Below the pieces are notes generated by a model. That model worked only from the letters and a program-made list of their open reading frames with translations. It was not told where the DNA came from and did no database searches. This document shows, piece by piece, positions 1,071 through 22,244 of a DNA stretch of 24,000 nt; position 1 is the first letter of the stretch; every line of letters starts with the position of its first letter. Made by a program: the position numbers and the translations under genes. Location: the NCBI GenBank assembly GCA_029288275.1, contig JARIHM010000085.1:15379-39378 (forward strand), in the 5' to 3' direction. This DNA comes from Candidatus Saccharimonadota bacterium (GTDB taxonomy: Bacteria; Patescibacteriota; Saccharimonadia; UBA4664).

Positions 1071-1206
1071 GCTTGCGCTGATTTGGGCTTGCTCGCTATA
1101 GCAGAAAGCCCAGATCCAAGCGACGAAGCTCTCGGATCTGGGCGAAAACTAGCAAAGTTCCCGGGGCGACAGGAAGCTTTCGGTGACGCTACGAGCTCCT
1201 TACTCA

Positions 1207-1389
1207 TCAGCAGCGCTCGCTTAGGGCGCTTTCTGGAACGTTCTTGAGTACCTTCCAGGACCCATCCTTTGACCTGTAGGAAATAGTGTAAGTGTGTTTC
1301 CTATCGTTGTAACCTTTGACGAGGGCGTCGCGCATACCATCCGTCGCAGTGGTATTGACCCAGAGATCCTTGCCGACATGCCAGACCAT
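1207..1389 (-). CDS. small hypothetical protein (60 aa)
   Basis: Internal ATG of the 1207..1470 ORF, preceded by GAGAGGA. An extended -10-like TGTTACACT lies further upstream. A 9-bp-stem hairpin (1109-1142) lies downstream. Product: MVWHVGKDLWVNTTATDGMRDALVKGYNDRK... Confidence 0.4.
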   Translation of the reverse strand: MVWHVGKDLWVNTTATDGMRDALVKGYNDRKHTYTISYRSKDGSWKVLKNVPESALSERC

Positions 1390-1481
1390 GACAATCCTCT
1401 CAGCGGCCCGACGAGCCTGTCTCGCCGGGCCGGGCTTAGTGTAACATAGGTCGTACGAGGAACTAAGCAAAAGGATTTATT

Positions 1482-2783
1482 GTGCTACGAACCATTGTGA
1501 AAGCCCTGATTCCGCGCGGATTATTCCGGGCCATTGAGCCCTATGGCCATCTAGCGGAGGCGGTAATGTGGCAGGTGCTGATGGGCTTTCCGGCGCGCGG
1601 CCTCAAGGTAATTGGCGTGACCGGTACCGATGGCAAGACCACCACTAGCACGCTCATTTATACGATGCTCAATGATGCAGGCCTTAAAACCGGCCTCATG
1701 ACCACCATTGGCTATGGTACGCCTGGCCACTGGCATGATAATCAGGTGCACATGACTACCATGCCGACACGGGCTATGTTGCAACGGATTAGGGCTCTGC
1801 GCCGGCAGGGGATCGAGTGGCTGGTGTTGGAGACGACCAGTCATGCACTGGCCCAGTATCGGGTATGGGGCATTCCTTATAGCCTGGCCGTGATGACCAA
1901 CTTGACGGAGGAGCACCTGGATTACCACGGGACGTTTGAGCGTTACCGCGAGGCCAAGGTGCGCTTGTTCAAGTTGGTGGCGGCCAATACGCGCGGCTTA
2001 CAGACCGGCATTGTGAATGCTGACGATCCGAATGCTTCATACTTTGTGGCGGCCGCGCCGCGCGTATTGCGTTACGGCACGACTATTCAGGCCGATCTGA
2101 AACCAGCTCACGTGGTGAGCACCGCCACCGGTAGTACCTATGACGTAACCTATGATGGCCACACTCTTCACATGACCGTAAATGTGCCAGGAGACTTTAA
2201 TGTGATGAACTCACTGGCTGCCGTGGGCGTGGGCTTGACACTAGGCCTCAAGCCGGCAGCGATTGAGCAAGGAGTAGCGGCGCTCAAAACGGTGGCTGGC
2301 CGCATGAATACCATCGAAGAGGGGCAGAACTTTACGGCCATTGTGGACTTTGCTCACACCCCAGAGTCATTTGAGAAGATATTGAGTAGCATGCGCCGGC
2401 TGGCTAAGGGGCGGCTAATCGTGTTATTTGGCTCGGCTGGGGAGCGCTACGCCGGCAAGCGTGGCACACAGGGGGCCTCGGCCGGTCGCTGGGCCGATCT
2501 GGTAATTGTGACCGAGGAGGACGACCGTGGCGAAGACGGCCGGGCTATCATGAAGCAGATTGCCCAAGGTGCGGAGGCTGAAGGCAAGATTATGGACGAG
2601 AATCTATTTTTGATTGGAGATCGTACCCAAGCTATCACCTTCGCCGTGAAGCAGGCCCGGCCCGGCGATACAGTGCTGTTTCTAGGCAAGGGCCATGAAA
2701 AGACCATTGAACGCGCCGATGGCGTTCATCACTGGGACGAGACGGAGGTGGTGCGCAAGGCGCTGCGTGAGTTACGCTCGTAG
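1482..2783 (+). CDS. murE: Mur ligase, MurE-type (UDP-MurNAc-L-Ala-D-Glu:diamino acid ligase)
   Basis: P-loop GVTGTDGKTTT. MurE-like motifs TSHALAQYRV, TNLTEEHLDYHG, DFNVMNSLAA and VDFAHTPESFEKIL. GTG start 6 nt after AAGGA. The N-terminal domain is shorter than in E. coli MurE. Confidence 0.78.
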   Translation: MLRTIVKALIPRGLFRAIEPYGHLAEAVMWQVLMGFPARGLKVIGVTGTDGKTTTSTLIYTMLNDAGLKTGLMTTIGYGTPGHWHDNQVHMTTMPTRAMLQRIRALRRQGIEWLVLETTSHALAQYRVWGIPYSLAVMTNLTEEHLDYHGTFERYREAKVRLFKLVAANTRGLQTGIVNADDPNASYFVAAAPRVLRYGTTIQADLKPAHVVSTATGSTYDVTYDGHTLHMTVNVPGDFNVMNSLAAVGVGLTLGLKPAAIEQGVAALKTVAGRMNTIEEGQNFTAIVDFAHTPESFEKILSSMRRLAKGRLIVLFGSAGERYAGKRGTQGASAGRWADLVIVTEEDDRGEDGRAIMKQIAQGAEAEGKIMDENLFLIGDRTQAITFAVKQARPGDTVLFLGKGHEKTIERADGVHHWDETEVVRKALRELRS

Positions 2784-3725
2784 CTTATTCTGGGCCAGAT
2801 AGTTGGCGTACCAGCTGTAGTCGCCGCCCAGGAATTTAGCCACCAGCTCGGTCCCAAGCTCGGCGGTTTGGCGCTGCACATCCTGGAGAGGATTGTATTC
2901 CACCACATCGCAGCCCACCACATGCGCATGCGTACCGATGTAGTGGGCGATGGCGGCGATCTCGCGATAGGTGAGGCCCCCGGGATTGGGCATGCCAGCA
3001 CCGGGTGCGTATACCCGGTCGATTACATCCAGATCCAGGCTCACCCACACGTGATCGACCTGTGCAGCCAGCTTATCAATCATGGCAAAGAGCGGCGCGA
3101 GGTTGCTGGTGAGTAGATCATGCAGTGTAAATGCCGGTAATTTTTCGCGGACGATTAGCTCCAGCTCGGCTTGGTCAAAGTCATTCCCGCCAATATGCAG
3201 GAGGTGCTGGCGGGCAATCTTGGTACCGGGCCGGTGGAGCTGAGTCATGGCTGGATCCCCAAAACCTAGCAGCGCTGCCAGATGCATGCCATGAATATTG
3301 CCGGTGAGGGTAGTGTCCGGAGTGTTCATATCGCCGTGGGCATCAAAGTAAATGAGGCCGAGGTTACCCTCCACGGCTGCCGCCGCGCCAGACACCAGCC
3401 CCAGCGTCACCGAATGATCTCCACCCAGACCGACTACTCGGCGCCCTTGCCGCACTAGCCGCTCAGTAAGGCGGGCAGTCTCACTGGACACTCGCACAAT
3501 CTCATCCAGGTGCCGTAGCTTAGGATCGCCCACGGCTACCTTGGCGCGATCAGCACAGGCGATATTACCCTCATCGGTCATATCAAAACCAGCGCTCGCC
3601 AGCTTGCTCATTATGCCCTGATACCGAAATGCATCTGGCCCCACGTCCACACCCAGGTTCTCGGCGCCCAGATCAAGCGGAATACCGATTAATGACACGG
3701 CCTTGGAAGGGGATTGCATCTTCAT
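2772..3725 (-). CDS. rocF: arginase (ureohydrolase family)
   Basis: Mn-binding motifs GGDHSVTLG, DAHGDMNTP and SLDLDVIDRVYAPGAGMPNPGG. TGNIHGMHLA and the overall layout resemble Bacillus RocF. Its 3' end overlaps murE convergently by 12 nt. Confidence 0.82.
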   Translation of the reverse strand: MKMQSPSKAVSLIGIPLDLGAENLGVDVGPDAFRYQGIMSKLASAGFDMTDEGNIACADRAKVAVGDPKLRHLDEIVRVSSETARLTERLVRQGRRVVGLGGDHSVTLGLVSGAAAAVEGNLGLIYFDAHGDMNTPDTTLTGNIHGMHLAALLGFGDPAMTQLHRPGTKIARQHLLHIGGNDFDQAELELIVREKLPAFTLHDLLTSNLAPLFAMIDKLAAQVDHVWVSLDLDVIDRVYAPGAGMPNPGGLTYREIAAIAHYIGTHAHVVGCDVVEYNPLQDVQRQTAELGTELVAKFLGGDYSWYANYLAQNKLRA

Positions 3726-3731
3726 ATGGCG

Positions 3732-3737
3732 ATTATA
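3732..3737 (-). promoter_or_regulatory. -10 box placed for a leaderless arginase mRNA
   Basis: Minus strand reads TATAAT-cgccat-ATG, so the -10 box ends 6 nt before the start codon. There is no SD and no convincing -35. Confidence 0.4.
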
Positions 3738-3825
3738 ACTTGTTTTGTGTCTGGACTTTTCTATGGAAGATGTTAATATGTTTCACGATCCATTTCTCCG
3801 AACAGCGAGAGGCGGTGAATTGACA

Positions 3826-3999
3826 ATGTGCGAGAGAGAAGAGAAGGCTCACAAGGACCGTCGTAGAGAGGTCACAAGAGCCATCAGACGTGGTTCCCGT
3901 GCTGAGATGACGGCTGCTGAACGACGCTACGCCGTCAGGCACCGTCGTAACGTGGTCCATGGCAGAGACATGGACCGGGGCAGCAGCAACCTCTGCTAA
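3826..3999 (+). CDS. small basic ORF (57 aa), coding status uncertain
   Basis: ATG preceded by GAGAGGCGG about 11 nt upstream. Product MCEREEKAHKDRRREVTRAIRRG... A possible promoter TGGACT-16-TAATAT lies at about 3752-3779. Confidence 0.25.
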   Translation: MCEREEKAHKDRRREVTRAIRRGSRAEMTAAERRYAVRHRRNVVHGRDMDRGSSNLC

Positions 4000-4067
4000 C
4001 GGCCATCACGAGGATATCCTCGAGACTTTTGGCGGAACGGCCGCCAAATGAGAAGAAGGAGTACTTC

Positions 4068-4199
4068 ATGCTGCGCTGTGACCCGAATCCGAATCCTGAT
4101 ACCCGCCAGGAGCGGCTGGACGCTGCCGCCGAGCAGATGGGCAAGCGGTTCGGCGAAAAGGGCCGGTACCGCGGTCGACGCCCGGGCGACAAGAGCTAG
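4068..4199 (+). CDS. small ORF (43 aa), coding status uncertain
   Basis: Best SD in this unit: GAAGGAG, 7-nt spacer, ATG. Product MLRCDPNPNPDTRQERLDAAAEQMGKRFGEKGRYRGRRPGDKS. Too short for the supplied track. Confidence 0.35.
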   Translation: MLRCDPNPNPDTRQERLDAAAEQMGKRFGEKGRYRGRRPGDKS

Positions 4200-4204
4200 A
4201 GCTA

Positions 4205-4339
4205 ATGTGCGAGAGCAGACCGGAGCCGAATAACGGCTTCAACCCAGCCGGCACCAAGGTGCGCGCTACTACTACGCGTGATCGCAACATCGCTCAGGCG
4301 ACAAGGCATCTGCCGAAGCGCAAGCAGATCGAGAAGTAG
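4205..4339 (+). CDS. small ORF (44 aa), coding status uncertain
   Basis: ATG 5 nt after the preceding stop; weak SD. Product MCESRPEPNNGFNPAGTKVRATTTRDRNIAQATRHLPKRKQIEK. It shares the first 12 nt (aATGTGCGAGAG) with the ORF at 3826. Confidence 0.2.
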   Translation: MCESRPEPNNGFNPAGTKVRATTTRDRNIAQATRHLPKRKQIEK

Positions 4340-4361
4340 CTCTCTTGCGTTGATGTAGTAA

Positions 4362-4399
4362 GGCCCGTTCCTCCGATTGGAGGAACGGGCCGTTTTTTT
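4362..4399 (+). terminator. rho-independent terminator
   Basis: Perfect 13-bp stem ggcccgttcctcc / ggaggaacgggcc with loop gatt, followed by a run of 7 T. Confidence 0.85.
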
Positions 4400-4613
4400 G
4401 TTAGCAGCCGTTTTCCTTTTGCTCTGGCTTGCGCCGGCGCGTTTTAGGTTGACGTGCGGGCCTCAAATCGCCGCAATCGATCACTTTGGTGCTATCTACA
4501 ATCTGAACGATGCAGGCCTCGGTAAGTGCACAATCTGCTCTGGTAACCGGATCTTTGCATTCACCGCAGTGCTTGAAGCGCAATGTAGGTTGCCTCTCTG
4601 ATGGTGTGTACGC

Positions 4614-4769
4614 CTAGCTCTGTGGCTTGAGCTCTCGCGGTGGCTCTGGGCTTTTTGTAGCACGTGGTGTACTGCCAAACACCAGACTATTTTCCTGTGC
4701 GGACTTGATCGTGCATATCCTTTGTGTCCGGCAGATACTTTGCCTTGGGCACCGATCGCATAGCTTCAT
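4614..4769 (-). CDS. small Cys-rich protein (51 aa); the frame continues past an in-frame TAG
   Basis: GGAAGGAGGG lies immediately upstream of the ATG at 4769. Product MKLCDRCPRQSICRTQRICTIKS... (CX2CX5CX5C). TAG at 4616-4614. The same frame stays open for 70 more codons, ending at a TAA stop at 4403-4401. Confidence 0.4.
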   Translation of the reverse strand: MKLCDRCPRQSICRTQRICTIKSAQENSLVFGSTPRATKSPEPPRELKPQS

Positions 4770-4796
4770 AGCCCTCCTTCCCAAACCTGCTTGTTA

Positions 4797-4825
4797 CTTG
4801 TACGCATTTCTCCGGCATAGGTCAA
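4797..4825 (-). promoter_or_regulatory. sigma70-like promoter for the 4769<- ORF
   Basis: Minus strand: TTGACC (4825-4820), 17-nt spacer, TACAAG (4802-4797). Confidence 0.4.
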
Positions 4826-4843
4826 CTTTGCTACACTACGGGT

Positions 4844-6193
4844 ATGAACTTTCCAACCTCACTCTTCAAGGCTTATGACATTCGCGGGCTCGTTGGTACT
4901 GAATTAACGCCAGCATTGGCCGAGGGAGTGGGTCGAGCACTGGCCGACTTTCTGCCTGATGAGGGTCCGATATGCGTGGGTTACGATATGCGGCCAGACT
5001 CGCGCGAGCTGGCGGCCGCCATCCGTACCGGCTTGATGCATCAGGGGCGCGAAGTGTATGACATTGGCGAGGTGGCTAGCGATATGATTTACTTTGCCGT
5101 CGGCCACCTGCAGGCTGCTGGCGGGGCCATGGTAACGGCCAGCCACAATCCCGGCGCCTACAACGGCATTAAGCTGTGCGGCCGTGAGGCCCGGCCGATC
5201 GGCATCGAGACTGGGTTGGCCGACCTGCGTGATGCCGTGGCGGCCGATCGCTACAAGGCTGCTGACGCGCCTGGTCGCCATGAACGTCGTAGCATTATGG
5301 AGGCTTGGGTTAAGCATGCGCTCAGTTTTGTGGATGCGGGCGGCCTCAAGCCCTACCACATTGCTGTGGATGCTGGGAATGGTATGGGCGGCCTCGTTAT
5401 GCCGCACCTGGCCGGCAAGTGGCCGCTCACCGTCGAACCGATGTACTTTGAGCTTGATGGTACCTTCCCAAACCATCCGGCCAATCCACTGGTGGCGGAG
5501 AACGATCGCGACCTGATCGCCAAGATTAAGGCGGAGCGGCTGGACTTTGGCCTGGCCTTTGACGGCGATGGCGACCGGGCGGTCATGGTGGACGAGCTGG
5601 GCCGCATCGTTCCGGGCCACATTATGACGGCTATGCTGGCCAAGCATTTCTTAAAGCGTAATCCCGGTGCCAATATCATCTATGATGCCCGCAACAGCCA
5701 CCTGGTACGCGACGTAGTAGAAGAGAACGGCGGGCATGCTATCCGGAGCCGGGTGGGCCATTCGTTTATCAAGGCCGATATGCGCCGGTATGATGCGCCT
5801 TTTGGCGGGGAATTCTCGGGCCATTATTACTTCCGCGATAACTTCTACGCTGATTCGGGCCTCATTGGCGCCCTAGTGGGTATTCAGGTATTGAGTGATA
5901 GTGGCCAAAAGCTTTCTGAACTGGTTGATGAGTATGCAGCTCGGTATGCCCGCTCGCCGGAAATTAACTTCTCGGTGACCGATAAGGATGCCAAAATAGC
6001 TGAGCTGGCCAAGCTGTATGCTGATGGCGCTATTGATCATCTGGACGGACTGACGGTGACCTACCCGGATTGGTGGTTCAACGTCCGGCCGTCCAACACT
6101 GAGCCGTTGTTGCGTCTGAATGTAGAGGCTACCACATCGCAGGTGCTAGCGGAGCAGGAGGCCAAGCTTAAGGCCGTGCTGGGAACTGCATAA
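4844..6193 (+). CDS. phosphomannomutase/phosphoglucomutase (alpha-D-phosphohexomutase)
   Basis: N-terminal FKAYDIRG, phosphoserine loop TASHNPGAYNGIKL, Mg loop FDGDGDR and sugar loop GGEFSGH. Confidence 0.9.
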   Translation: MNFPTSLFKAYDIRGLVGTELTPALAEGVGRALADFLPDEGPICVGYDMRPDSRELAAAIRTGLMHQGREVYDIGEVASDMIYFAVGHLQAAGGAMVTASHNPGAYNGIKLCGREARPIGIETGLADLRDAVAADRYKAADAPGRHERRSIMEAWVKHALSFVDAGGLKPYHIAVDAGNGMGGLVMPHLAGKWPLTVEPMYFELDGTFPNHPANPLVAENDRDLIAKIKAERLDFGLAFDGDGDRAVMVDELGRIVPGHIMTAMLAKHFLKRNPGANIIYDARNSHLVRDVVEENGGHAIRSRVGHSFIKADMRRYDAPFGGEFSGHYYFRDNFYADSGLIGALVGIQVLSDSGQKLSELVDEYAARYARSPEINFSVTDKDAKIAELAKLYADGAIDHLDGLTVTYPDWWFNVRPSNTEPLLRLNVEATTSQVLAEQEAKLKAVLGTA

Positions 6194-6858: not shown

Positions 6859-6885
6859 TTGGCACTCACCGCTGTTGAGTGCTAA
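6859..6885 (+). promoter_or_regulatory. CIRCE operator (HrcA site) overlapping the groES promoter
   Basis: TTGGCACTC-N9-GAGTGCTAA has one mismatch to the consensus TTAGCACTC-N9-GAGTGCTAA. A possible promoter TTGGCA (6859-6864), 18-nt spacer, TAAAGT (6883-6888) overlaps it. Confidence 0.85.
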
Positions 6886-7181: not shown

Positions 7182-7187
7182 TTGCGC

Positions 7188-8855
7188 ATGGCAAAGAAGA
7201 TTTTTTACGATGACGATGCCCGCGCCCGCGTACTGGCTGGCGCCGAGGAGCTGTATAAAGCCGTTCGTGTAACCATGGGTCCCAAGGGCCGTAATGTGGT
7301 TATTAGCAAGAGCTACGGCGGCCCAAGCGTAACGCACGACGGCGTGACCGTGGCCAAAGCGGTGGAAATTGAGAATCGCAATGACGAGACGCTGGGCCGC
7401 AGCGTGGGTGCTGAACTCATTAAGCAGGCTGCCAGCAAGACAGCCGACAACGTAGGTGATGGTACCACTACCAGCACCGTGCTGACTTACCACATTTTGA
7501 ATGAGGCTAACAAGCTGATCGCGGCCGGCCACAATCCGATGGACCTGAAGAAGGGCCTGGACCAGGCCGCCGAGGCAGTGCTCGGTAACGTGGCGGGCAT
7601 GACCGAGCAGATTGCTGGCAACAAGGCTAAGACCGCCGAGGTAGCTACTGTGTCGGCTGGTGATGCCGAGATTGGTGCGCTGATTGCCGACGTGATCGAG
7701 GCCGTAGGTAATGACGGTACGGTGACGGTCGAGCAATCGCAGACGCTAGGCCTGGAGAAGGAGATCGTAGAAGGTTTCAAGATCGACCGGGGTTACGTCA
7801 GCGCCTATATGGCAACCGACATGGCGCGTATGGAGGCAGTCTACGAAAAGCCGCTCATTTTGGTGACCGATAAGAAGATCTCCAGCATCCAGGAGATCCT
7901 GCCGTTGCTCGAAAAGATGGCCCAGACCGGTAAGAAAGAGCTGGTGATTGTGGCCGAGGATGTGGATGGCGAGGCGCTAGCTACGCTCATTCTGAACCGG
8001 CTTAAGGGCGTGTTTAACACGCTGGCTATCAAGGCGCCGGCCTTTGGTGACCGTCGTAAGGCTGTGTTGGAAGACATTGCTACCCTTACCGGCGCAGTAG
8101 TGATTAGCGAGGAGCAGGGCTATACCTTCGAGAACGCCACGCTCGATATGCTCGGTTCGGCGCGCAAGGTGATCGCTACCAAGGACGATACCACCATCAT
8201 TGAAGGTACGGGCGATGCCAAAGCCGTGACTGCACGCATGGAGCAGATCCGTGGCCAAGTAGAGCACGCTTCGAGTGAGTACGACAAAGAGAATCTAGAG
8301 AAGCGCCTCAGCGCCCTGGCTGGCAAAGTGGCGGTCATTAAGGTAGGCGGCGCCACCGAGGTCCAGATTAACGAGACCAAAGATCGCGTCGATGACGCCG
8401 TGGCAGCCACCAAAGCAGCCGTGGCCGAAGGCATCGTGCCTGGCGGCGGTGTAACGCTGGTGGACCTGAGCAAGAAGCTTGAAGTTGAAGCTACCAAGGT
8501 GAGCTCCAGCGTGGAAGCCGGCCATCTGATTCTGAAGCAGGCGCTGATACAGCCGTTCCGCGAGCTCATGCGTAACGCCGGCCTTAACCCAGACGCGCAG
8601 CTGCCGCAGGTGATGAATCAGAACAAGCCGGGTATGGGCTTTGACGTCAACGACGGCAGCAAGCTGGTAGACCTGAAAGCAGCCGGAATTGTTGATCCCG
8701 CCAAGGTAACCCGTGAGGCCATCCAGAACGCCGTCAGTATTGCCGGTACGGCCATGACCATGGGTAGCCTGATCGTGGATCTGCCCGAGGAGAAGGGTGC
8801 TCCGGCTGGTGGTGGTATGCCCGGTGGTATGGGCATGGGCGGCATGGACTACTAG
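7188..8855 (+). CDS. groEL: chaperonin GroEL
   Basis: MAKKIFYDDDAR..., VGDGTTTSTVL, and a GGM-repeat C-terminus GGMPGGMGMGGMDY. The ATG at 7188 is preferred over the TTG at 7182 used in the track. Confidence 0.97.
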   Translation: MAKKIFYDDDARARVLAGAEELYKAVRVTMGPKGRNVVISKSYGGPSVTHDGVTVAKAVEIENRNDETLGRSVGAELIKQAASKTADNVGDGTTTSTVLTYHILNEANKLIAAGHNPMDLKKGLDQAAEAVLGNVAGMTEQIAGNKAKTAEVATVSAGDAEIGALIADVIEAVGNDGTVTVEQSQTLGLEKEIVEGFKIDRGYVSAYMATDMARMEAVYEKPLILVTDKKISSIQEILPLLEKMAQTGKKELVIVAEDVDGEALATLILNRLKGVFNTLAIKAPAFGDRRKAVLEDIATLTGAVVISEEQGYTFENATLDMLGSARKVIATKDDTTIIEGTGDAKAVTARMEQIRGQVEHASSEYDKENLEKRLSALAGKVAVIKVGGATEVQINETKDRVDDAVAATKAAVAEGIVPGGGVTLVDLSKKLEVEATKVSSSVEAGHLILKQALIQPFRELMRNAGLNPDAQLPQVMNQNKPGMGFDVNDGSKLVDLKAAGIVDPAKVTREAIQNAVSIAGTAMTMGSLIVDLPEEKGAPAGGGMPGGMGMGGMDY

Positions 8856-13717: not shown

Positions 13718-14694
13718 TACTTGGCCCCGGTCAACGGCACCGCAGTGTTGGCGCCAGGCGCGTACACCGTGACACCCTTCGGCAGGGCGGCGATGATGTC
13801 GATCTGCCCGCAGACCGGACAGGCGTTGTAGCCTTCCTGCTTCGTCTCATTGGCCTTGGCTTCAGCCTGAGCCTGCGCCACCTTGGCCTGGCTCTCGCTG
13901 ACCTTGGCATAGGCAGCCTGGGCGTCCTCCACGGCCTTCTGGACCGAGTCGGGCAAGCTGACCTTGCTCAGATTGAAGTGGATGTTGGAGAGGAACTCCC
14001 CGCCCAACGTACCCTTCAGATCCTGAGCGAACGAGGTGTTGACCGCGTCCTGGACCTTGGCGATGTTGCCGTTGTTGGCCTGGCCGTTGGTGCCGGCCTG
14101 GGGCTGAGTACTCTGACCTTGGTTCTGCACCAAGGCGCAGCTCGACACCAACTCCGCACAGCGGAAGTTGTTGACCTGCTCACGCAGATCGTTGTCGATG
14201 ACGGGGCGAATGATCTGGTCGAGGAAGCTCGACCAGCCCTCGTCGCCGTCCCAGGCGTAGCGCAGCTGGCCATCGGCACCGCGGAACTGCCGGGTGCCGA
14301 ACTTGTCGTCGAAAGTGTGCAGGGTGTTCTCGTCGGTGTTGAGGGTGAAGTAGAAAGTCCCCTCGATCCCCATTGACACACCGTCGCTCGATGGCACGGT
14401 GACAACGTCGATCCCGGTCTTGTCACCTTCGTTGGCCTTGGCCGTGATGGTGTAGAAGCGCTGCTGTGCCGGGTAGCGGTGAATGCTGGACCAGAAGCCA
14501 GTCCAGGTTACGCCGCTACCGGCCGGAATCTTCTGGCGGTAGCTGTTGTCATCGAACCACCCACCGTTTCGAACCACCGCAACCTCGCCGGCGCTCGTCT
14601 TGGTGAGGCTGTCGAACGCTCCGTAGAGAGTCGGCAGGCCGAAGATGACCAGCACAACCAGTACCAAGAGGGCCCAGGGCCGTCGATTTCGCAT
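13717..14694 (-). CDS. SPFH/band-7 (stomatin/prohibitin-like) membrane protein
   Basis: N-terminal TM WALLVLVVLVIFGLP. SPFH-like core (GEVAVVRNGG..., VVTVPSSDGVSMGIEGTFYFTL, IIRPVIDNDLREQV). Ala/Gln/Glu-rich coiled C-terminus AQAAYAKVSESQAKVAQAQAEAKA. ATG at 14694 follows GGAAGGA. Confidence 0.7.
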   Translation of the reverse strand: MRNRRPWALLVLVVLVIFGLPTLYGAFDSLTKTSAGEVAVVRNGGWFDDNSYRQKIPAGSGVTWTGFWSSIHRYPAQQRFYTITAKANEGDKTGIDVVTVPSSDGVSMGIEGTFYFTLNTDENTLHTFDDKFGTRQFRGADGQLRYAWDGDEGWSSFLDQIIRPVIDNDLREQVNNFRCAELVSSCALVQNQGQSTQPQAGTNGQANNGNIAKVQDAVNTSFAQDLKGTLGGEFLSNIHFNLSKVSLPDSVQKAVEDAQAAYAKVSESQAKVAQAQAEAKANETKQEGYNACPVCGQIDIIAALPKGVTVYAPGANTAVPLTGAK

Positions 14695-14738
14695 GAGTAT
14701 TCCTTCCAAGAGGAGGTGCTGCGGTAAAGCCGTTTTGT

Positions 14739-14766
14739 ACTATACTGATTTTTTCCACTATGTCAA
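14739..14766 (-). promoter_or_regulatory. sigma70-like promoter of the SPFH operon
   Basis: Minus strand: TTGACA (14766-14761), 16-nt spacer, TATAGT (14744-14739), in an AT-rich gap. Confidence 0.6.
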
Positions 14767-14794
14767 TAAATTTATACCGTTCTTAGCCCAGATA

Positions 14795-14803
14795 TGCTAA
14801 AAT
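14795..14803 (+). promoter_or_regulatory. extended -10 element upstream of tRNA-Ser
   Basis: TGCTAAAAT ends 10 nt before the tRNA 5' end. Confidence 0.45.
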
Positions 14804-14813
14804 AGCCCGGTCC

Positions 14814-14901
14814 GGAGGGGTCGCCTAGTGGCCTATGGCGCTCGCTTGGAAAGCGAGTTGGGTGCAAGCCCTCGAGGGTTCGAATCCCTCTCCCTCCGCC
14901 A
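14814..14901 (+). tRNA. tRNA-Ser (anticodon GGA), CCA encoded
   Basis: Manual fold: acceptor GGAGGGG/TCCCTCC, anticodon stem CTCGC/GCGAG, loop TTGGAAA (anticodon GGA), a long variable arm (class II), T-arm GAGGG-TTCGAAT-CCCTC, discriminator G, then CCA. Confidence 0.9.
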
Positions 14902-14915
14902 GGAATTATTTTGTG

Positions 14916-15383
14916 ATGGCTATGATATCAACTGGGATTGCACAAGCATCTGATCTAAGGGCAATCTATGAACTTGGCCAGACAGTGGCTGAGTTTGAGG
15001 TAAACGATCAGACCGTGGGATTCTGGCCTCAGGCCGTGGTAGCCGATGCCATTACAAGCACTGATGTACTCGTAATTGTGGCCCGGAATGATCGGGAAGA
15101 ATTAATTGGGTTCATCATTGCAAATTTGAATAAAACGCTACGCAAAGTTCTTATTGAGAACTTGGTTGTGGCTCCGCATGCCCGGGGGCGTAAAGTAGGT
15201 GGGGTAATGCTGGCTCATCTAGTGGCAATTGTTTCGGGCTCGGGGTATGAGTACCTGGCGGCTCTTGTGCCGCTGCAGGCCGAGAGTGCACTGCGAGCCT
15301 ATGGTGAGGCGGGGTTCTCCCGTGGACACAGCTTTGTGTGGCTTGATCGTACACTATCGCGGCATTTTCGGCGGTCAGGATAG
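14916..15383 (+). CDS. GNAT family N-acetyltransferase
   Basis: Acetyl-CoA motif A LVVAPHARGRKVGGVML. The start was trimmed from the track ORF (14835), which overlaps the tRNA. GTG 14913 and ATG 14922 are alternative starts. Confidence 0.75.
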   Translation: MAMISTGIAQASDLRAIYELGQTVAEFEVNDQTVGFWPQAVVADAITSTDVLVIVARNDREELIGFIIANLNKTLRKVLIENLVVAPHARGRKVGGVMLAHLVAIVSGSGYEYLAALVPLQAESALRAYGEAGFSRGHSFVWLDRTLSRHFRRSG

Positions 15384-15385
15384 AT

Positions 15386-15916
15386 ATGCAAGGGCTGGCA
15401 ATGATACTCATAATGCTGGCCGCGATAATCTTGGCGGGGTATGGGCTGCATGGCTACTACTTGGTGCGCAACCAGGTGCCGCTGGTGCGGCTGCCCTGGC
15501 CTGCGGTACAGCCGGTGCTGCAGGCACTTGAGCCGGCGGATAATGCTGTGCTGTACGATTTAGGCTGCGGCGATGGTCGGGTTTTGCGAGCGGCCTTGGC
15601 AGCTGGAGTGTATGCGCAGGTCGTGGGTATTGAGAACAACGTAATGGCCTGGGCTTGGGCGTACCTCCGGCTAGGCCGGCGGGGACGGGTTATTTGCGGC
15701 AACCTGCTGCATCAGGATGTATCCTCAGCCACTCGGCTGGTAGCGTATTTGAGCCCAGAGCTCATGCAGCTGCTAGAGCCGAAGCTGGTCCGCGAGCTGC
15801 CAGCTGGTGCGCGGCTGGTATCGGTGCAGTTTCCCCTGGCACGGCCGGCCAGCCGCATAATTGAGCTGCCGGATGCTCCAGCACATGCTCAAAGGCTCTA
15901 TGTGTATGATTTTTAA
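15386..15916 (+). CDS. class I SAM-dependent methyltransferase with an N-terminal TM helix
   Basis: Motif [15 protein letters not shown]-terminal hydrophobic segment [15 protein letters not shown]. Starts 2 nt after the GNAT stop. Confidence 0.7.
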
Positions 15917-15942
15917 TCTACAATAGAGTCAGGAAAACGCTT

Positions 15943-17100
15943 ATGCCTAAAACAATTACCACAGCTCAAGATATCGCTACACTGGGAACGATCCTGGGCG
16001 TGTGGGCGCATCCGGACGATGAATCGTTCGTGGCGGCCGGTATCCTGGCTACCGCTGCTCGCAACGGCCAGACGGTAGTGTGCGCCACTGCGACGGAAGG
16101 CGAGGCGGGCATTCAAGATATCACCAAATGGCCAGCCGAGACTCTTGGCGCCACCCGGGTGGCCGAACTGCGGGCGGCACTGGCGGTTTTGGGCGTAGAG
16201 CAACACGTGTGGCTGGGGTACCCAGACGGGGGCTGTGCTGAAATTAGTCAAGCCAAGGCCGTTGCGGGTATCCGTTCCCTGTTGCGGCGGTTCCAGCCTG
16301 ATACGGTTATCACCTTTGGTCCTGACGGTCTTACGGGCCACCCGGATCACTGTGCGGTATCACGTTGGGCCACGTTGGCGGCTGGCTCGGTACGGCCGCG
16401 GCCGCGCTTGTTTTACGCCGTTCACACCCCCGAGCAGCACGAGCACTTTAAACCGGCCGATGCGCGCCTCAATATCTTTTTCAACATTGATCAGCCACCG
16501 CTGCGGGCGGCCGAAAACTGCGTCATCGCCTATGAACTGCCGCGCGACATTATGGCACTCAAGCATCAAGCGTTTAAGGTAATGCCCTCGCAAACGCAGA
16601 AATTGTTGCGTGTGCTAACTCCACGGGCCTTTTATCGCGCCTTTGGGGCCGAATATTTTGTAGAATATAATCCTCAGGAGGACGAGCCCATGACTGATAG
16701 CGATACTATGAAGCACCAACCCGAATCCTACTGGAAAGGCAAGCTGACACCCGAGCAATATCATATTATGCGCGAAAAAGGCACGGAGGTGCCGTGGACG
16801 GGTATTTACGTGGACAACCACGCGTCGGGTATGTATCGGTGCGCGGCTTGCGGCCAGGAGCTATTCTCGAGTGAGACAAAATTCGACAGCGGTTCTGGCT
16901 GGCCGAGCTTTTATGATGTAGCGGCCACCGGGCGAGTAGAACTGCACGAGGATAGTTCGGCCGGCCTGCAGCGCACCGAAGTAACTTGTGCGAACTGTGG
17001 CGCGCACTTGGGCCATGTATTCCCTGACGGCCCGGCTGATAAGACCGGTCAGCGCTATTGTATTAACTCGGCGGCGCTCGATTTTAAGGCTGCCAAGTGA
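15943..17100 (+). CDS. msrB: fusion ORF: LmbE/PIG-L family deacetylase (N-terminal) and methionine-R-sulfoxide reductase MsrB (C-terminal)
   Basis: N-terminal [10 protein letters not shown] and GHPDH motifs (LmbE/PIG-L). C-terminal MsrB motifs [28 protein letters not shown] and RYCINS. A single frame with no stop. An internal AGGAGGA-7 nt-ATG lies at 16690. Confidence 0.8.
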
Positions 17101-17933: not shown

Positions 17934-18727
17934 CCAATCCGCGGCTGCAAGAATTTCGCGACACTATCTGGAATTTCTATCACGATCACGGCCGTGATCT
18001 GCCTTGGCGCCATGATCCCACGCCATATCAGGTGCTTATTAGTGAGGTGATGCTGCAGCAGACGCAGGTAAGCCGGGTGCTGGTGAAGTACGCCGAGTGG
18101 ATGCGGACGTTTTCGGACTTTGAAACTCTGGCCCGTGCGAGCGTGGCCGAGGTGTTGACGGCTTGGCAGGGCCTCGGATACAACCGGCGGGCGCTCTGGC
18201 TGCAGCGGGCTACCCAGATGGTAGTGAATGACTACAGCGGAGTGCTACCGCGCGATCCATCGGTGCTCGTGATGCTGCCGGGCATTGGGCCTAATACCGC
18301 CGGGAGCATCGCGGCCTTTGCCTACCAGGAGCCCACGGTTTTTATTGAGACCAATATTCGGCGAGTGTTTTTGCATGAGTTCTTTGCTGATCAAGAGAGT
18401 GTGGCCGATGCCGAGCTGCGACCACTAATTGAGGCGACCGTCGACCCGGAACACCCCCGCGAATGGTACTACGCGCTTATGGACTATGGCGCGGATCTAG
18501 CCAAGCGCGTGCCCAATCCGAACCGCCGTAGTAAACATTACAATGTTCAGGGTAAGTTTGAGGGTAGCGTACGTCAGATCCGGGGCGAGGTACTGCGCCA
18601 GCTGCTGGAACGGCCCCGAAGACTGGGCGAGTTTGAGGTCGCCGATGAACGGTTGGCGGCCGTTTTGGCGGCGCTCGTGAAAGAAGGTTTTGCTGTGCAG
18701 GAGGGCGATATTTATCGCCTTCACTAG
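17921..18727 (+). CDS. HhH-GPD DNA glycosylase, MutY-like, with no cysteines
   Basis: LPWR...PYQVLISEVMLQQTQV, GLGYNRRA and the HhH motif LPGIGPNTAGSIAAFAY. There is no Cys anywhere, so no 4Fe-4S loop. The C-terminus looks like a winged helix, not NUDIX-like. An alternative ATG at 17930 gives an ATGA overlap. Confidence 0.8.
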   Translation: MASMTNPRLQEFRDTIWNFYHDHGRDLPWRHDPTPYQVLISEVMLQQTQVSRVLVKYAEWMRTFSDFETLARASVAEVLTAWQGLGYNRRALWLQRATQMVVNDYSGVLPRDPSVLVMLPGIGPNTAGSIAAFAYQEPTVFIETNIRRVFLHEFFADQESVADAELRPLIEATVDPEHPREWYYALMDYGADLAKRVPNPNRRSKHYNVQGKFEGSVRQIRGEVLRQLLERPRRLGEFEVADERLAAVLAALVKEGFAVQEGDIYRLH

Positions 18728-18743
18728 TTCTGGTCCATAAAGG

Positions 18744-18772
18744 ATGACACCTCTGGCAAACTCCGGTAATAT
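18744..18772 (+). promoter_or_regulatory. sigma70-like promoter
   Basis: ATGACA (18744-18749), 17-nt spacer, TAATAT (18767-18772). Confidence 0.5.
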
Positions 18773-18813
18773 CAGGCAGGCTACGTGTTGTCGACCTGTG
18801 CGAAGGAGCCGCA

Positions 18814-18996
18814 GTGGGCAATGTACCGAAGAAGGACGAGATCTGGGTCCACAACCTATCTGGTCAAGAGTTTAAAATCGTGAGCGTGAGCGAGGAAGAA
18901 GTGAGATTCCGCGGGCTCTACCGTAGTTCTGCTCGTCCGCTCCGCAAGCCGCTGCAAGAGTTTCTCGTTCATTACAGCAAGAAATTAAAAAAGTAG
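18814..18996 (+). CDS. small hypothetical protein (60 aa)
   Basis: GAAGGAG, 5-nt spacer, GTG. It has its own promoter and a downstream hairpin. Product MGNVPKKDEIWVHNLSGQEFKIVSVSEEEVRFRG... Confidence 0.5.
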   Translation: MGNVPKKDEIWVHNLSGQEFKIVSVSEEEVRFRGLYRSSARPLRKPLQEFLVHYSKKLKK

Positions 18997-19017
18997 AGCT
19001 GAGCCAGCGATTACAAT

Positions 19018-19048
19018 GTGGACCTACGGCCGATTGCCGTGGGTCCAC
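19018..19048 (+). terminator. extended hairpin, a possible terminator lacking a U-tract
   Basis: Stem gtggacc / ggtccac enclosing acggc / gccgt. Confidence 0.45.
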
Positions 19049-19074
19049 CCTAAGGAATGATAAGCTAGAACCGT

Positions 19075-19470
19075 ATGGCCGGATATTCTGAACGACCGTT
19101 AATTGAAAAACTAGGCGTGCGGGCTGAAGCCCGGACGATCATTTTGCGTGCGCCCAAAGGCTACCTTGAGCTTATGCCCGAGCTGCCTGAGCGCGCTCAG
19201 ATGGTGACACGGCTGGCTGGTCTATTCGATTTTATGCAATACTTTGCTACCAGCACCGAGCAGCTGGAGGCCGTGTTGCCAAATTTGGTGCGGCATCTAC
19301 AATCGGACGGCATGCTGTGGATTAGCTGGGCCAAGCGCACCTCGCCACTGCATACAGGGCTGGCCGAACCAGCGGTACGGCGACTGGGCCTAGCGACTGG
19401 TCTGGTAGACGTTAAAGTGGCCGCCCTGACCGATGATTGGTCGGGGCTCAAATTCGTGTATCGATCCTAG
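19075..19470 (+). CDS. DUF3052-like protein
   Basis: MAGYSERPLIEKLGV..., WISWAKR and VDVKVAALTDDWSGLKFVYR match my recollection of the DUF3052 family, which is common in Actinobacteria. Confidence 0.65.
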   Translation: MAGYSERPLIEKLGVRAEARTIILRAPKGYLELMPELPERAQMVTRLAGLFDFMQYFATSTEQLEAVLPNLVRHLQSDGMLWISWAKRTSPLHTGLAEPAVRRLGLATGLVDVKVAALTDDWSGLKFVYRS

Positions 19471-19496
19471 ACTTTATTTTTTATATATTGTATAGT
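19468..19496 (+). promoter_or_regulatory. sigma70-like promoter of the J-domain cassette
   Basis: TAGACT (19468-19473, containing the upstream stop codon), 17-nt spacer, TATAGT (19491-19496), in a very AT-rich gap. Confidence 0.5.
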
Positions 19497-19550
19497 ATTT
19501 TTCGACTACGATTGTGTGGTCGCTCATTCCAACCCAGAGAAGGGATTCTC

Positions 19551-20069
19551 ATGAGCGCAACGACTCACTTGCCGGCGGTTGTGACCGAAGCAGGCGGGGC
19601 ACTGGTAAGCGTTCTCAGCTGGACTCAGTACACCGAATTGTCGCCCCAGGTGACCTATGCCCTGGGCCGGCTGGTGGGCGAGCACCCTGACCTCAACACC
19701 GAGCAGCGTGTGGATCTGCTGGCCGATATGGCCCACCACCACGGGTCTTCGTTCGATGCGGAGTTCCTGGAGCTGCTCGAAGAGTACACGCCGGAGCTGG
19801 TTCACCTGGCCATCGACACTCTGTACGAATGCGCTTACCGTGATCGTCAGGGTGGCAAGATGGCCGACCTGGAGGGTCTGGCCAAGTTCATTCAGGCTGC
19901 TGGTGAGTACGGCCGCGAGCTGACGACCGTTCATGGCGTCAGCGTGTTGCTGGAACGCCTGGGTGGTCTGGAAGTGGTGGTTGAGTACTCACTCACCGAG
20001 ATCGAGCAAGCGCTCGATGGTTTGGACGAAGCCGACAGCAGGGGAGGGTATGTTGAGGAGCTCATTTGA
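19551..20069 (+). CDS. orphan acidic protein (172 aa), first gene of the J-domain cassette
   Basis: GAGAAGGGA, 5-nt spacer, ATG. G/C-rich codons. Product MSATTHLPAVVTEAGGALVSVLSWTQYTEL...; D/E-rich C-terminus. Confidence 0.7.
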   Translation: MSATTHLPAVVTEAGGALVSVLSWTQYTELSPQVTYALGRLVGEHPDLNTEQRVDLLADMAHHHGSSFDAEFLELLEEYTPELVHLAIDTLYECAYRDRQGGKMADLEGLAKFIQAAGEYGRELTTVHGVSVLLERLGGLEVVVEYSLTEIEQALDGLDEADSRGGYVEELI

Positions 20070-20970
20070 GATCCTAGGAGTACCTCGAGGACTGGTGCGC
20101 CGGGCCCTTGAGGCCGATGCGCTGGACACGCTTGCATCGGTTATCAAGCGTTATCACCGTGTCCTCTTGCACGAATACCATCCCGACCAGCCTACGGGTG
20201 ATGCTCAACTGCTGGATGAGGTGGTCAAAGTCTACAAGCAGCTCCAGGACCCAATCGCGCTAAAGTTTGAGGCTGAGCTCTACGTGAAGGATGGCCTGGC
20301 GCCCAAGACCGCTGCGGCCAGCTCGAAGCGTCAAGCTCAGCGCGATGACCGTGTTCGCGAAGCCCTGGAGACAATGCTTCTGGTTGTGGACCAGCAGTGC
20401 ATCCTGGGCGCTTCCGGGCCGGTGCGGTTCTTTGTCGGACTGGACGTCTCGGGCTCGGACTTTAGCGGGAGCTACGAGGAAGGCCTGGCCGGAGAGCTGA
20501 GCGCCCATGCGCTCACTCTGGCGCGGACTCTGCCCATAGCCGACCCGACTGGGCTTGACGGGGCTGATAAGCTGGTCTTCGATGGCCGTCCTGAGTTCGA
20601 TATCCAGGAGAACCTCTGGCGCGACGTTGCTTTCGTTAACCCAGAGGTTAATTCCGAGAGCCGCAGCTGGCTTCACCGCCAGACGGTGCCGCTTCCTAGC
20701 GATATCAGGCTGGCTGGGGCAGTGGCCAAGGGGCTGGCGGCGGATCTGTGGGTATCGCTGTACGGAGCGCGTGGTTCCGGTCCGTCGGCTAGAGGCGCGC
20801 TCCCTGGCGGCCGGCTCCAAGGCTTAGCCTGGGCGCCGTTTGGCCAGTGTTGGTGGGCGCCGTTGTTGCAACCGCGGGCTGCCCTGGGCGATCATCTGGT
20901 CCTCGTGAGGGATGGCGAATCCCCGCTCTACACATTGACGGGCCGGCTCTTAGCCTGCGAGCCAATGTAG
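20050..20970 (+). CDS. J-domain protein with an unrecognised roughly 230-aa C-terminal region
   Basis: SFEILGVPRGL...IKRYHRVLLHEYHPDQPTGDAQLLDEVVKVYKQLQDP has the HPD tripeptide at 20179-20187. It overlaps the upstream gene by 20 nt. An alternative start is ATG 20017. Confidence 0.72.
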   Translation: MLRSSFEILGVPRGLVRRALEADALDTLASVIKRYHRVLLHEYHPDQPTGDAQLLDEVVKVYKQLQDPIALKFEAELYVKDGLAPKTAAASSKRQAQRDDRVREALETMLLVVDQQCILGASGPVRFFVGLDVSGSDFSGSYEEGLAGELSAHALTLARTLPIADPTGLDGADKLVFDGRPEFDIQENLWRDVAFVNPEVNSESRSWLHRQTVPLPSDIRLAGAVAKGLAADLWVSLYGARGSGPSARGALPGGRLQGLAWAPFGQCWWAPLLQPRAALGDHLVLVRDGESPLYTLTGRLLACEPM

Positions 20971-20976
20971 CACGTG

Positions 20977-21012
20977 GCCCCCTGTCGTAATGCGACAGGG
21001 GGCTTTCCTTTT
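20977..21012 (+). terminator. rho-independent terminator
   Basis: 11-bp stem gccccctgtcg / cgacagggggc with loop taatg, followed by tttcctttt. Confidence 0.85.
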
Positions 21013-21054
21013 GGTCCTGTGCTCGGTACAGTGCTTAGGTAACGGCAAATCTTC

Positions 21055-22053: not shown

Positions 22054-22082
22054 CCCGAGTTCTCTCACGAGAGGTGCCTTCG

Positions 22083-22244
22083 GTGGCTCGCAAGAAAAAA
22101 GGAAAAAAGACGGGCTTTAAGTGTAGTAGCTGCACGCACGACGTTTATGCGTGCGGCGTAAGCGGCAATAATCATACCGACTGTAGTAACTGTAATGGCA
22201 AGCTGGTTGTCTGCGCCAACCGAAAGTGTAGTACTAACAGGTGA
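22083..22244 (+). CDS. small Cys-rich basic protein (53 aa), coding status uncertain
   Basis: GAGAGG about 6 nt upstream of a GTG, 30 nt after the PHP stop. Product MARKKKGKKTGFKCSSCTHDVYACGVSGNNHTDCSNCNGKLVVCANRKCSTNR (7 Cys). Confidence 0.4.
   Translation: MARKKKGKKTGFKCSSCTHDVYACGVSGNNHTDCSNCNGKLVVCANRKCSTNR

Follow-up and report, generated by a model that had tools for sequence, protein, structure and literature searches.

J-domain proteins decide where Hsp70 acts, and the class C members are the least understood among them. A survey of about 280,000 J-domain proteins counted 2,712 class C architectures (PMC10410713). In this study we analyzed a stretch of 24,000 nucleotides (hereafter the window) of contig JARIHM010000085.1 from a Candidatus Saccharimonadota bacterium (assembly GCA_029288275.1). 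The subject of the analysis is a two-gene cassette in the window, in which the gene of an acidic protein (gene 1; its product is called the partner) overlaps the gene of a protein that begins with a J domain (gene 2). An original prediction, made from the letters of the window alone, had described the two genes as a closed unit and had suggested that it recruits DnaK to a specific client or process.

In the HscB/IscU/HscA system, the J domain stands at the N-terminus, a domain dedicated to client binding comes after it, and one specific partner is handed to Hsp70. The recognition motif of IscU is LPPVK, a short motif containing proline. The cassette is similar in its arrangement, and its partner carries a comparable L-P-x-x-V motif. 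However, HSCB_C is a helical (three-helix) bundle, whereas the tail of the cassette J-domain protein is beta-rich and unmatched; moreover, the partner is not IscU-like and there is no isc or suf context at the cassette. Class A DnaJ and class B CbpA share with the gene 2 product a J domain with the HPD motif, but the gene 2 product has neither the Gly/Phe region, nor the CXXCXGXG zinc finger, nor the DnaJ_C beta-sandwich of these proteins.

A specialized J-domain protein of Shewanella oneidensis, AtcJ, acts alongside the housekeeping DnaJ and is encoded in an operon (AtcJ-AtcABC) together with functionally uncharacterized proteins that bind to it outside the J domain (PMC6715715). The AtcJ-AtcC pair is a precedent for an operon-encoded partner of a J-domain protein (PMC6715715). 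AtcJ differs in that it has 94 residues with a tail of 21 residues and is encoded by the first of four genes, whereas the cassette J-domain protein has a folded domain of about 190 residues and is encoded by the second of two; no sequence relation between the two systems was detected. In Escherichia coli, the J-domain protein CbpA is co-transcribed with CbpM, a small protein acting on it (PMC4063869). CbpA, however, is a class B protein with DnaJ-type C-terminal domains (CTDs), and cbpM lies downstream and encodes a MerR-like protein, whereas the cassette partner is encoded upstream and is unrelated in sequence. The orphan J-domain protein Rki of phage RB43 has a non-canonical tail and redirects DnaK to one target (PMC3486835). 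The cassette differs from it in being chromosomal, in having an obligatory partner gene, and in having no phage or viral relative that we could find.

The cassette consists of a promoter, two overlapping genes and a hairpin terminator, and forms a closed unit (Table 1). The consensus scan gave 2 promoter-like matches against 0.9 expected, so a single match is not above chance alone. Most of the other loci read also had the layout of a -35-like box, 17 nt and TATAGT in front of the homologous pair. Genes 1 and 2 are in different frames and share 20 nt, and the ATG assigned to gene 2 is consistent with the N-termini of its homologs in the 29-member alignment described below. When eight loci were read as DNA, the stop of the first gene and the start of the second overlapped by 20, 11, 1, 4, 47, 26 and 1 nt, and were separated in one case by a gap of 19 nt. 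That is, overlaps of 1-47 nt indicate a tight coupling of the two genes. The 70 nt 3' of the gene 2 stop had a folding energy of -36.8 kcal/mol, and a strong hairpin with a T-run was found 3' of the pair in seven of the eight loci. Since the promoter layout recurs in most loci and the terminator in 7/8, the cassette is a conserved, self-contained bicistronic operon; both the coordinates and the recurrence across loci thus bear out the closed unit that had been predicted. Both genes are real, because they have full-length homologs and show a ratio of nonsynonymous to synonymous substitutions (dN/dS) of about 0.16 between two strains. In the window and in the loci L006, L008 and L074 (the labels are our own), a leader hairpin begins a few bases past the -10 box, where the transcript is predicted to start; the sequences of these four hairpins are not conserved and their z-scores are modest (-0.3 to -2.5).

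A word-indexed search of 5.8 billion proteins with the J protein returned only that protein itself, the same type of search with the partner returned only the partner, and the profile form of this search yielded just one further relative. When 1.84 billion cluster representatives were searched exhaustively with phmmer, 31 proteins of 270-357 aa were found, most of them aligned over their full length. An alignment of 29 members of the J-protein family was the basis for the family profile, the AlphaFold2 model and the conservation counts given below. Among the GTDB species representatives, a single-protein scan found nothing, and most of the matches of a pattern scan were ordinary DnaJ genes; the one true relative that it gave, L013, is the only full-length relative in that set and comes from a metagenome-assembled genome (MAG) titled uncultured Candidatus Saccharibacteria. 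The ordinary DnaJ genes were pulled out by the GTDB tblastn via the J-domain region alone, which also supports the J domain. A metagenome scan with the partner gave L008 alone, which was already in the set. A second Saccharibacteria MAG from the same GTDB scan carries canonical dnaK-dnaJ; therefore, the phylum has the Hsp70 that the J protein would need.

The N-terminal 80 residues of the gene 2 product are a J domain, cryptic to Pfam, in which the HPD loop is intact and helix II is basic. The family profile matched J domains in the PDB with a best E value of 3.7e-7, and the top matches were nearly all J domains, including those of Sis1, T. thermophilus DnaJ2, CbpA, DnaJ, HscB/Jac1 and the T antigens. 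The query alone found the Sis1 J domain in the PDB at E=0.001 by phmmer. The AlphaFold2 model of the gene 2 product had a predicted local distance difference test score (pLDDT) of 87.5 overall and of 92-98 over residues 1-80, and contained the J-domain fold with the antiparallel hairpin of helices II and III. In Foldseek comparisons, the model matched the J domains of Sis1 and dnj-12 with probabilities of 0.99-1.0 and target-normalized TM-scores of 0.55-0.68, and viral J domains in BFVD were likewise matched. An unusual point of the model is a short additional helix (residues 13-21) that separates helices I and II. These results support the J domain and the HPD motif of the original prediction, with the query alone remaining below the Pfam threshold; a failure of profile searches to support the J domain, which we also considered, is contradicted by the family-profile and fold matches.

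Within the family, H of the HPD motif is kept in 28 of the 29 members, P in 25 and D in 28, and the full motif in 25. At the positions of helix II that correspond to Y25 and K26 of DnaJ, Y or F is present in 24/29 members and K or R in 21/29. Such conservation of HPD and helix II is hard to explain without selection for contact with Hsp70.

The part of the gene 2 product behind the J domain is different from that of the known J-domain proteins. Residues 84-110 are predicted to form a charged helix with few G or F, in the place of a Gly/Phe-rich linker. Residues ~121-306 are, according to the model, a separate, confidently predicted beta-rich domain resembling nothing known. Its conserved positions in the alignment are W190, G223, W261, W268 and G280-D281. 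The C-terminal domain had no Pfam or NCBIfam match in any of the 29 members, no PDB sequence was found for it by the family profile, and no credible Foldseek match was found in the PDB or BFVD; PCNA and serpins, returned at probabilities below 0.1 with root-mean-square deviations above 15 Å, were noise. As for the features of the known classes, there was no Pfam match to DnaJ_CXXCXGXG or DnaJ_C in the 29 members, and the gene 2 product contains 3 Cys in total and no CXXC. There was no Pfam match to HSCB_C, and the PDB chains of HscB and Jac1 were aligned through the J domain only, as were those of DnaJ and CbpA. Also, there was no Pfam match to TerB and no long hydrophobic segment, and the J domain is N-terminal, unlike in DjlA. 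The comparisons with Pfam, NCBIfam, PDB and BFVD thus agree with the earlier statement that the remainder of the protein has no Gly/Phe region, zinc finger, CTD, or DjlA- or HscB-like feature; a match of the C-terminal ~190 residues to a known co-chaperone class was looked for, and none was found by profile or by fold.

The gene 1 product has 31 D+E against 9 K+R and an isoelectric point (pI) of 4.35, in accordance with the acidic first product of 172 residues that had been predicted. It had no match in Pfam, NCBIfam, PHROGs, PADLOC or the PDB, Pfam and the PDB having also been tried with the family profile. A single-sequence AlphaFold2 model of low confidence (pLDDT 47) predicted it to be all-helical. 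Across eight partners, L7, P8, G15, G16 and V21 of the N-terminal motif (Table 1) are invariant, and the motif is also present in the partner of locus L075. In 12 of 12 loci examined, an open reading frame (ORF) of 162-207 aa lies directly 5' of the J gene on the same strand, and its stop is within a few bases of the J-gene start or the ORF overlaps the J gene. Nine of these 12 ORFs were read as sequence; all nine were homologous to gene 1 (24-44% identity) and encoded acidic proteins with pI values of 4.15-4.75. The L075 partner matched the partner-family profile at E=1.5e-50. Thus, the partner gene is always immediately 5' of the J gene on the same strand and usually overlaps it. That is, the pairing is obligate, and the co-occurrence on which the original prediction depended was found in every locus.

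The strong acidity of the partner (pI 4.15-4.75), the basic nature of helix II, and the overlap of the genes, which implies stoichiometric co-expression, would also suit a partner that is a regulator of the CbpM type. Such a partner would bind the basic helix II/HPD face and block the access of DnaK, so that the operon would encode a co-chaperone and its own inhibitor, with CbpA-CbpM as the precedent (PMC4063869). We consider this explanation unlikely, because the partner profile has no similarity to CbpM or to any PDB chain at E<=10. CbpM was not retrieved from the PDB sequences with this cutoff, though it is present there in 3ucs as a chain in complex with the CbpA J domain; GrpE was not matched by the profile either. 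In addition, when the strains L005 and L006 are compared, the J-domain part is invariant and the C-terminus of the partner and the tail of the J protein vary, a weak hint, from one strain comparison, that the partner co-varies with the tail and not with the J domain.

Table 1. Coordinates in the window of the features of the cassette and of the groES operator
Feature	Position	Strand	Description
CIRCE (HrcA operator) inverted repeat	6859-6885		TTGGCACTC-N9-GAGTGCTAA, one mismatch to consensus; directly 5' of groES (ATG ~6919); groEL at 7182-8855
Promoter, sigma-70-type	19468-19496	+	TAGACT (-35), 17-nt spacer, TATAGT (-10); 9/12 consensus matches (scan)
Leader hairpin at 5' end	19503-19522	+	7-bp stem CGACUAC/GUGGUCG, 6-nt loop (RNAfold of leader)
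Gene 1, 172-aa acidic partner	19551-20069	+	ATG 19551, stop 20069 (ORF)
Partner N-terminal motif	19566-19613	+	(N/H)-L-P-x-x-V-T-x-x-G-G-A-L-V-x-V; best-conserved stretch of the partner
Shine-Dalgarno-like GGGGAGGG for gene 2	20041-20048	+	within the 3' end of gene 1, just 5' of the second ATG (read from sequence)
Gene 2, 306-aa J-domain protein	20050-20970	+	ATG 20050, stop 20970 (ORF)
J domain, residues 1-80	20050-20289	+	helices 5-9, 13-21 (extra), 25-43 (helix II), 52-65 (helix III), 68-80
HPD motif, H44-P45-D46	20179-20187	+	codons cat ccc gac
Long connecting helix, residues 84-110	20299-20379	+	AlphaFold2 secondary structure; replaces the Gly/Phe-rich linker
C-terminal beta-rich domain, residues ~121-306	20410-20967	+	AlphaFold2 blocks mostly with pLDDT >90; disordered loop 245-256
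Intrinsic terminator	20976-21014	+	13-bp stem (9 GC), 3-nt loop, T-rich tail; scan places hairpin and T-run at 20976-21004

On balance, we favor the reading that the cassette is a self-contained bicistronic operon whose products are a J-domain protein of class C (type III), restricted to its lineage, and an obligate acidic partner, and that DnaK is recruited through them to a target defined by the partner. In this mechanism, the J domain would dock on the DnaK of the cell and trigger ATP hydrolysis, and the beta-rich domain and the acidic partner would together set what DnaK is loaded onto. By analogy with the logic of HscB-IscU-HscA, the partner may bind the beta-rich domain and may itself be a dedicated client or an adaptor. 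The invariant N-terminal L-P-x-x-V...G-G motif of the partner is a candidate docking peptide for Hsp70 or for the J-domain protein.

Several points weigh against this reading. The query scored only 17.2 bits (E=0.0057) against Pfam DnaJ, whose gathering score is 27.8, and was thus sub-threshold; E<0.01 was reached by just 8 of the 29 relatives. Four of the 29 relatives carry HSD or HTD and one carries RPD in the place of HPD, and the nearest relatives of the gene 2 product carry HSD or HTD; because of these variants, some family members may be weakened J domains. In addition, DnaK was not located in this genome, of which one contig was examined, no locus has a CIRCE upstream of the pair, and one relative (L075) stands among defence-like genes. 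Finally, we infer both the contact between the partner and the J-domain protein and the recruitment of DnaK to a specific client.

The Pfam score, the HSD or HTD of the nearest relatives and the extra helix between helices I and II would also be in line with a degenerate J-like fold of the gene 2 product that, like Pam16-type proteins, no longer acts on Hsp70 and belongs to a complex with an unrelated function. We give this explanation only a small chance, since the family has kept H and D in 28 members each, the full HPD in 25, and the aromatic (Y/F) and basic (K/R) residues of helix II.

The two genes of the cassette diverge together, and do so far faster than their neighbors. In the comparison of the window with L006, its closest syntenic relative, the flanking proteins were 76-99% identical (SelR domain 82%, glycosylase 76%, DUF 85%, PHP 80%, DnaG 76%, RpoD 88-99%), and the partner and the J protein were only 34% and 30% identical, respectively. 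DNA identity, 75-85% in the flanks, fell to about 45%, and the falls coincided exactly with the two edges of the cassette (near 19463 and 21057). In other genome pairs, the two proteins were again among the least conserved shared genes. All relatives, close and distant alike, share about 21-31% identity with the J protein, and GroEL of the window is only 63-65% identical to GroEL of L008, L009 and L011; judging from these identities, the divergence of the J protein saturates quickly. The pairwise identities of the partner and of the J protein were only weakly correlated (r=0.38), and at 20-40% identity such values have little power to tell vertical descent from exchange. The divergence island may be the result of either very fast vertical evolution or repeated import of alleles. 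The divergence of both genes suggests that the interface between the partner and the beta-rich domain, or their target, is under changing selection, or that the genes are exchanged again and again by recombination.

The strains L005 and L006 showed 0 differences in the J-domain-coding part, and 0 differences in a run of 362 nt that takes in the final 48 nt of the J gene, the whole terminator and the beginning of the PHP gene. In contrast, there were 53 differences in the cassette: the linker and tail of the J gene had 38, and the final 87 nt of the partner gene had 15. The dN/dS value between these strains was about 0.16 with a dS of about 0.12, and the pair is under purifying selection. This mosaic points to recombination rather than to relaxed constraint. 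We also considered whether variation within clusters is generally confined to the tail of the J protein; this was rejected as inconsistent across clusters, and the pattern of L005 and L006 is not generalized here.

In all eight loci of moderate GC content, the GC content of the pair exceeded that of the remaining locus by 3-11 points. The original prediction had called the two genes high in GC; this holds in those eight loci, but not in L075, a locus of 68% GC. An excess of GC and of GC at third codon positions (GC3) over the surrounding genes was observed for the pair of the window and for L003, L006, L008, L009, L011, L013 and L074. The GC3 of the partner gene was 0.62-0.85; five loci were ranked by GC3, and in three of them (L011, L009 and L074) the partner gene stood first among the called genes. 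Because the GC3 of the partner exceeds that of GroEL, the excess is not simply a codon bias linked to expression. The excess may stem from a recombination hot spot with GC-biased gene conversion, or from a foreign origin.

The sharp edges between flanks of 76-99% and a pair of 30-34% identity, the strain mosaic of 53 differences against none in the 362 nt downstream, and the GC3 enrichment would all be in line with a conflict module of the toxin-immunity or defence-like type. That is, the J domain would couple an effector domain to Hsp70, the upstream acidic protein would neutralize it, and an arms race would drive the divergence and the exchange of alleles. The order of the genes, in which the one for a small acidic protein comes first and overlaps a larger second one, also resembles that of type II modules, and in the 68%-GC genome the neighbors of the pair include an AbiEi antitoxin, a DolB/PDC-M37B-like Clp AAA+ protein and a STAND-like NTPase. 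We think that this explanation is quite unlikely, since neither protein matched PADLOC, no toxin or enzyme domain was found, and the partner had no match in viral contigs nor the J protein in phage genomes. In addition, the pair has housekeeping neighbors in several conserved slots of Saccharibacteria-like genomes, it is under purifying selection, and its proteins are much larger than those of typical toxin-antitoxin pairs.

Saccharibacteria live as epibionts on Actinobacteria, and secreted effectors typically have small acidic chaperones encoded next to them. The gene 2 product might be a host-directed effector that is delivered into the host cell and commandeers the DnaK of the host, with the partner as its dedicated secretion chaperone. 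The occurrence of a relative in a Saccharibacteria MAG, the very fast evolution with GC3 excess, the family member in a 68%-GC genome, and the small, acidic and adjacent partner are circumstantial points for this idea. It is opposed by the lack of a signal peptide and of a secretion-system gene nearby, and we regard it as extremely improbable. A broader proposal sees in the cassette a hypervariable module of epibiotic Saccharibacteria that serves host interaction or conflict and is exchanged by recombination; the J-domain protein would target an Hsp70, possibly the DnaK of the host, its specificity would come from the fast-evolving beta-rich domain and partner, and alleles would be swapped between strains, perhaps also with high-GC hosts. 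This proposal we hold to be very unlikely.

The neighborhoods of 12 family members were read, and four types of context were distinguished. In type a (L008, L009 and L011), the pair lies between a Mur ligase gene and CIRCE-groES-groEL. In type b (the window, L006/7 and the P0011 contig), the order is SelR, HhH-GPD glycosylase, DUF3052-like gene, pair, PHP, dnaG and rpoD. In type c (L074 and L003), a NUDIX gene precedes the pair, which is followed in L074 by Vut_1/TGT. Type d is that of L075 (67.6% GC), with genes of an AbiEi antitoxin, a DolB/PDC-M37B-like Clp AAA+ protein and a STAND-like NTPase. The reading of the loci matched the window to contig JARIHK010000019.1 of assembly GCA_029288295.1. 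The contigs that carry the pair are up to 862 kb long. These results indicate that the pair is chromosomal and occurs mainly in Saccharibacteria-like small genomes.

The original prediction had raised phages or defence islands as possible settings for the pair. The neighborhoods are ordinary chromosomal ones with no phage signal. A tblastn search with the J protein against 50,697 phage records gave no match, PHROGs gave nothing significant, the partner had no relative in the IMG/VR viral contigs, and the credible matches in BFVD were to J domains only; a phage origin is therefore rejected. A defence-island setting does not apply to the Saccharibacteria-like genomes with their housekeeping neighbors, and in L075 the pair lies near defence-like genes. 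PADLOC gave 0 matches for both window proteins and for their L075 orthologs. The defence-like neighbors of L075 (GCA_025491015.1), at 1185-5878 and 14579-17074, are unlike the housekeeping context elsewhere; they comprise the AbiEi antitoxin (E=5e-32), the STAND-like NTPase and a unit of two genes, the last of which encodes an AAA+ protein of the Clp-D2 type similar to DolB/PDC-M37B.

The pair adjoins groES-groEL in three lineages, and groES-groEL of the window lies about 11 kb upstream of the pair. In L008, L009 and L011, the CIRCE is immediately 5' of groES and 3' of the pair. Membership of the pair in the HrcA/CIRCE regulon was rejected, because the CIRCE always stands between the pair and groES. 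Thus, the adjacency of the pair to groES-groEL is positional and not regulatory.

Several other features were observed around the cassette. The conserved left neighbor of the cassette in type b is a gene of a 131-aa protein (19075-19470 in the window) with a weak DUF3052 match only, 84% identical to its L006 ortholog; a 135-aa gene occupies this place in the P0011 contig. The stretch between the PHP gene and dnaG, as well as 18727-19070, has no counterpart in L006, and the former, a variable stretch, contains an ORF of 56 aa (22074-22244) with 8 Cys and a weak zinc-ribbon match. Just past the right end of the window (L001 14580-15686), the primary sigma factor is called as two ORFs, one of 114 aa (regions 1.1/1.2) and one of 249 aa (regions 2-4), and is a single 368-aa gene in L006; the split may be genuine, or may come from a frameshift or from an error in the assembly. 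Elsewhere in the window, there are an arginase-family gene (2772-3725, minus strand, E=3e-59), a PIG-L deacetylase gene fused to SelR/MsrB (15943-17100, plus strand) and a tRNA-Ser(GGA) gene (14814-14901, plus strand).

Because class C J-domain proteins are extremely diverse, the new tail domain adds a type of specialized co-chaperone and no new principle. Surveys based on Pfam and InterPro have probably missed this J-protein family, since it lies below the Pfam DnaJ threshold. The features that go beyond the routine are a J domain invisible to Pfam at curated thresholds, a strictly obligatory partner, and a sharply bounded, GC3-rich and mosaic island of divergence. The cassette is a compact, genetically defined unit of a J-domain protein and one obligatory partner in very small genomes, and the retention of an extra co-chaperone in such genomes implies that its function is needed. 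The divergence gap, the strain mosaic and the GC3 excess together make the cassette a natural case in which to study the co-evolution of co-chaperone specificity with a partner.

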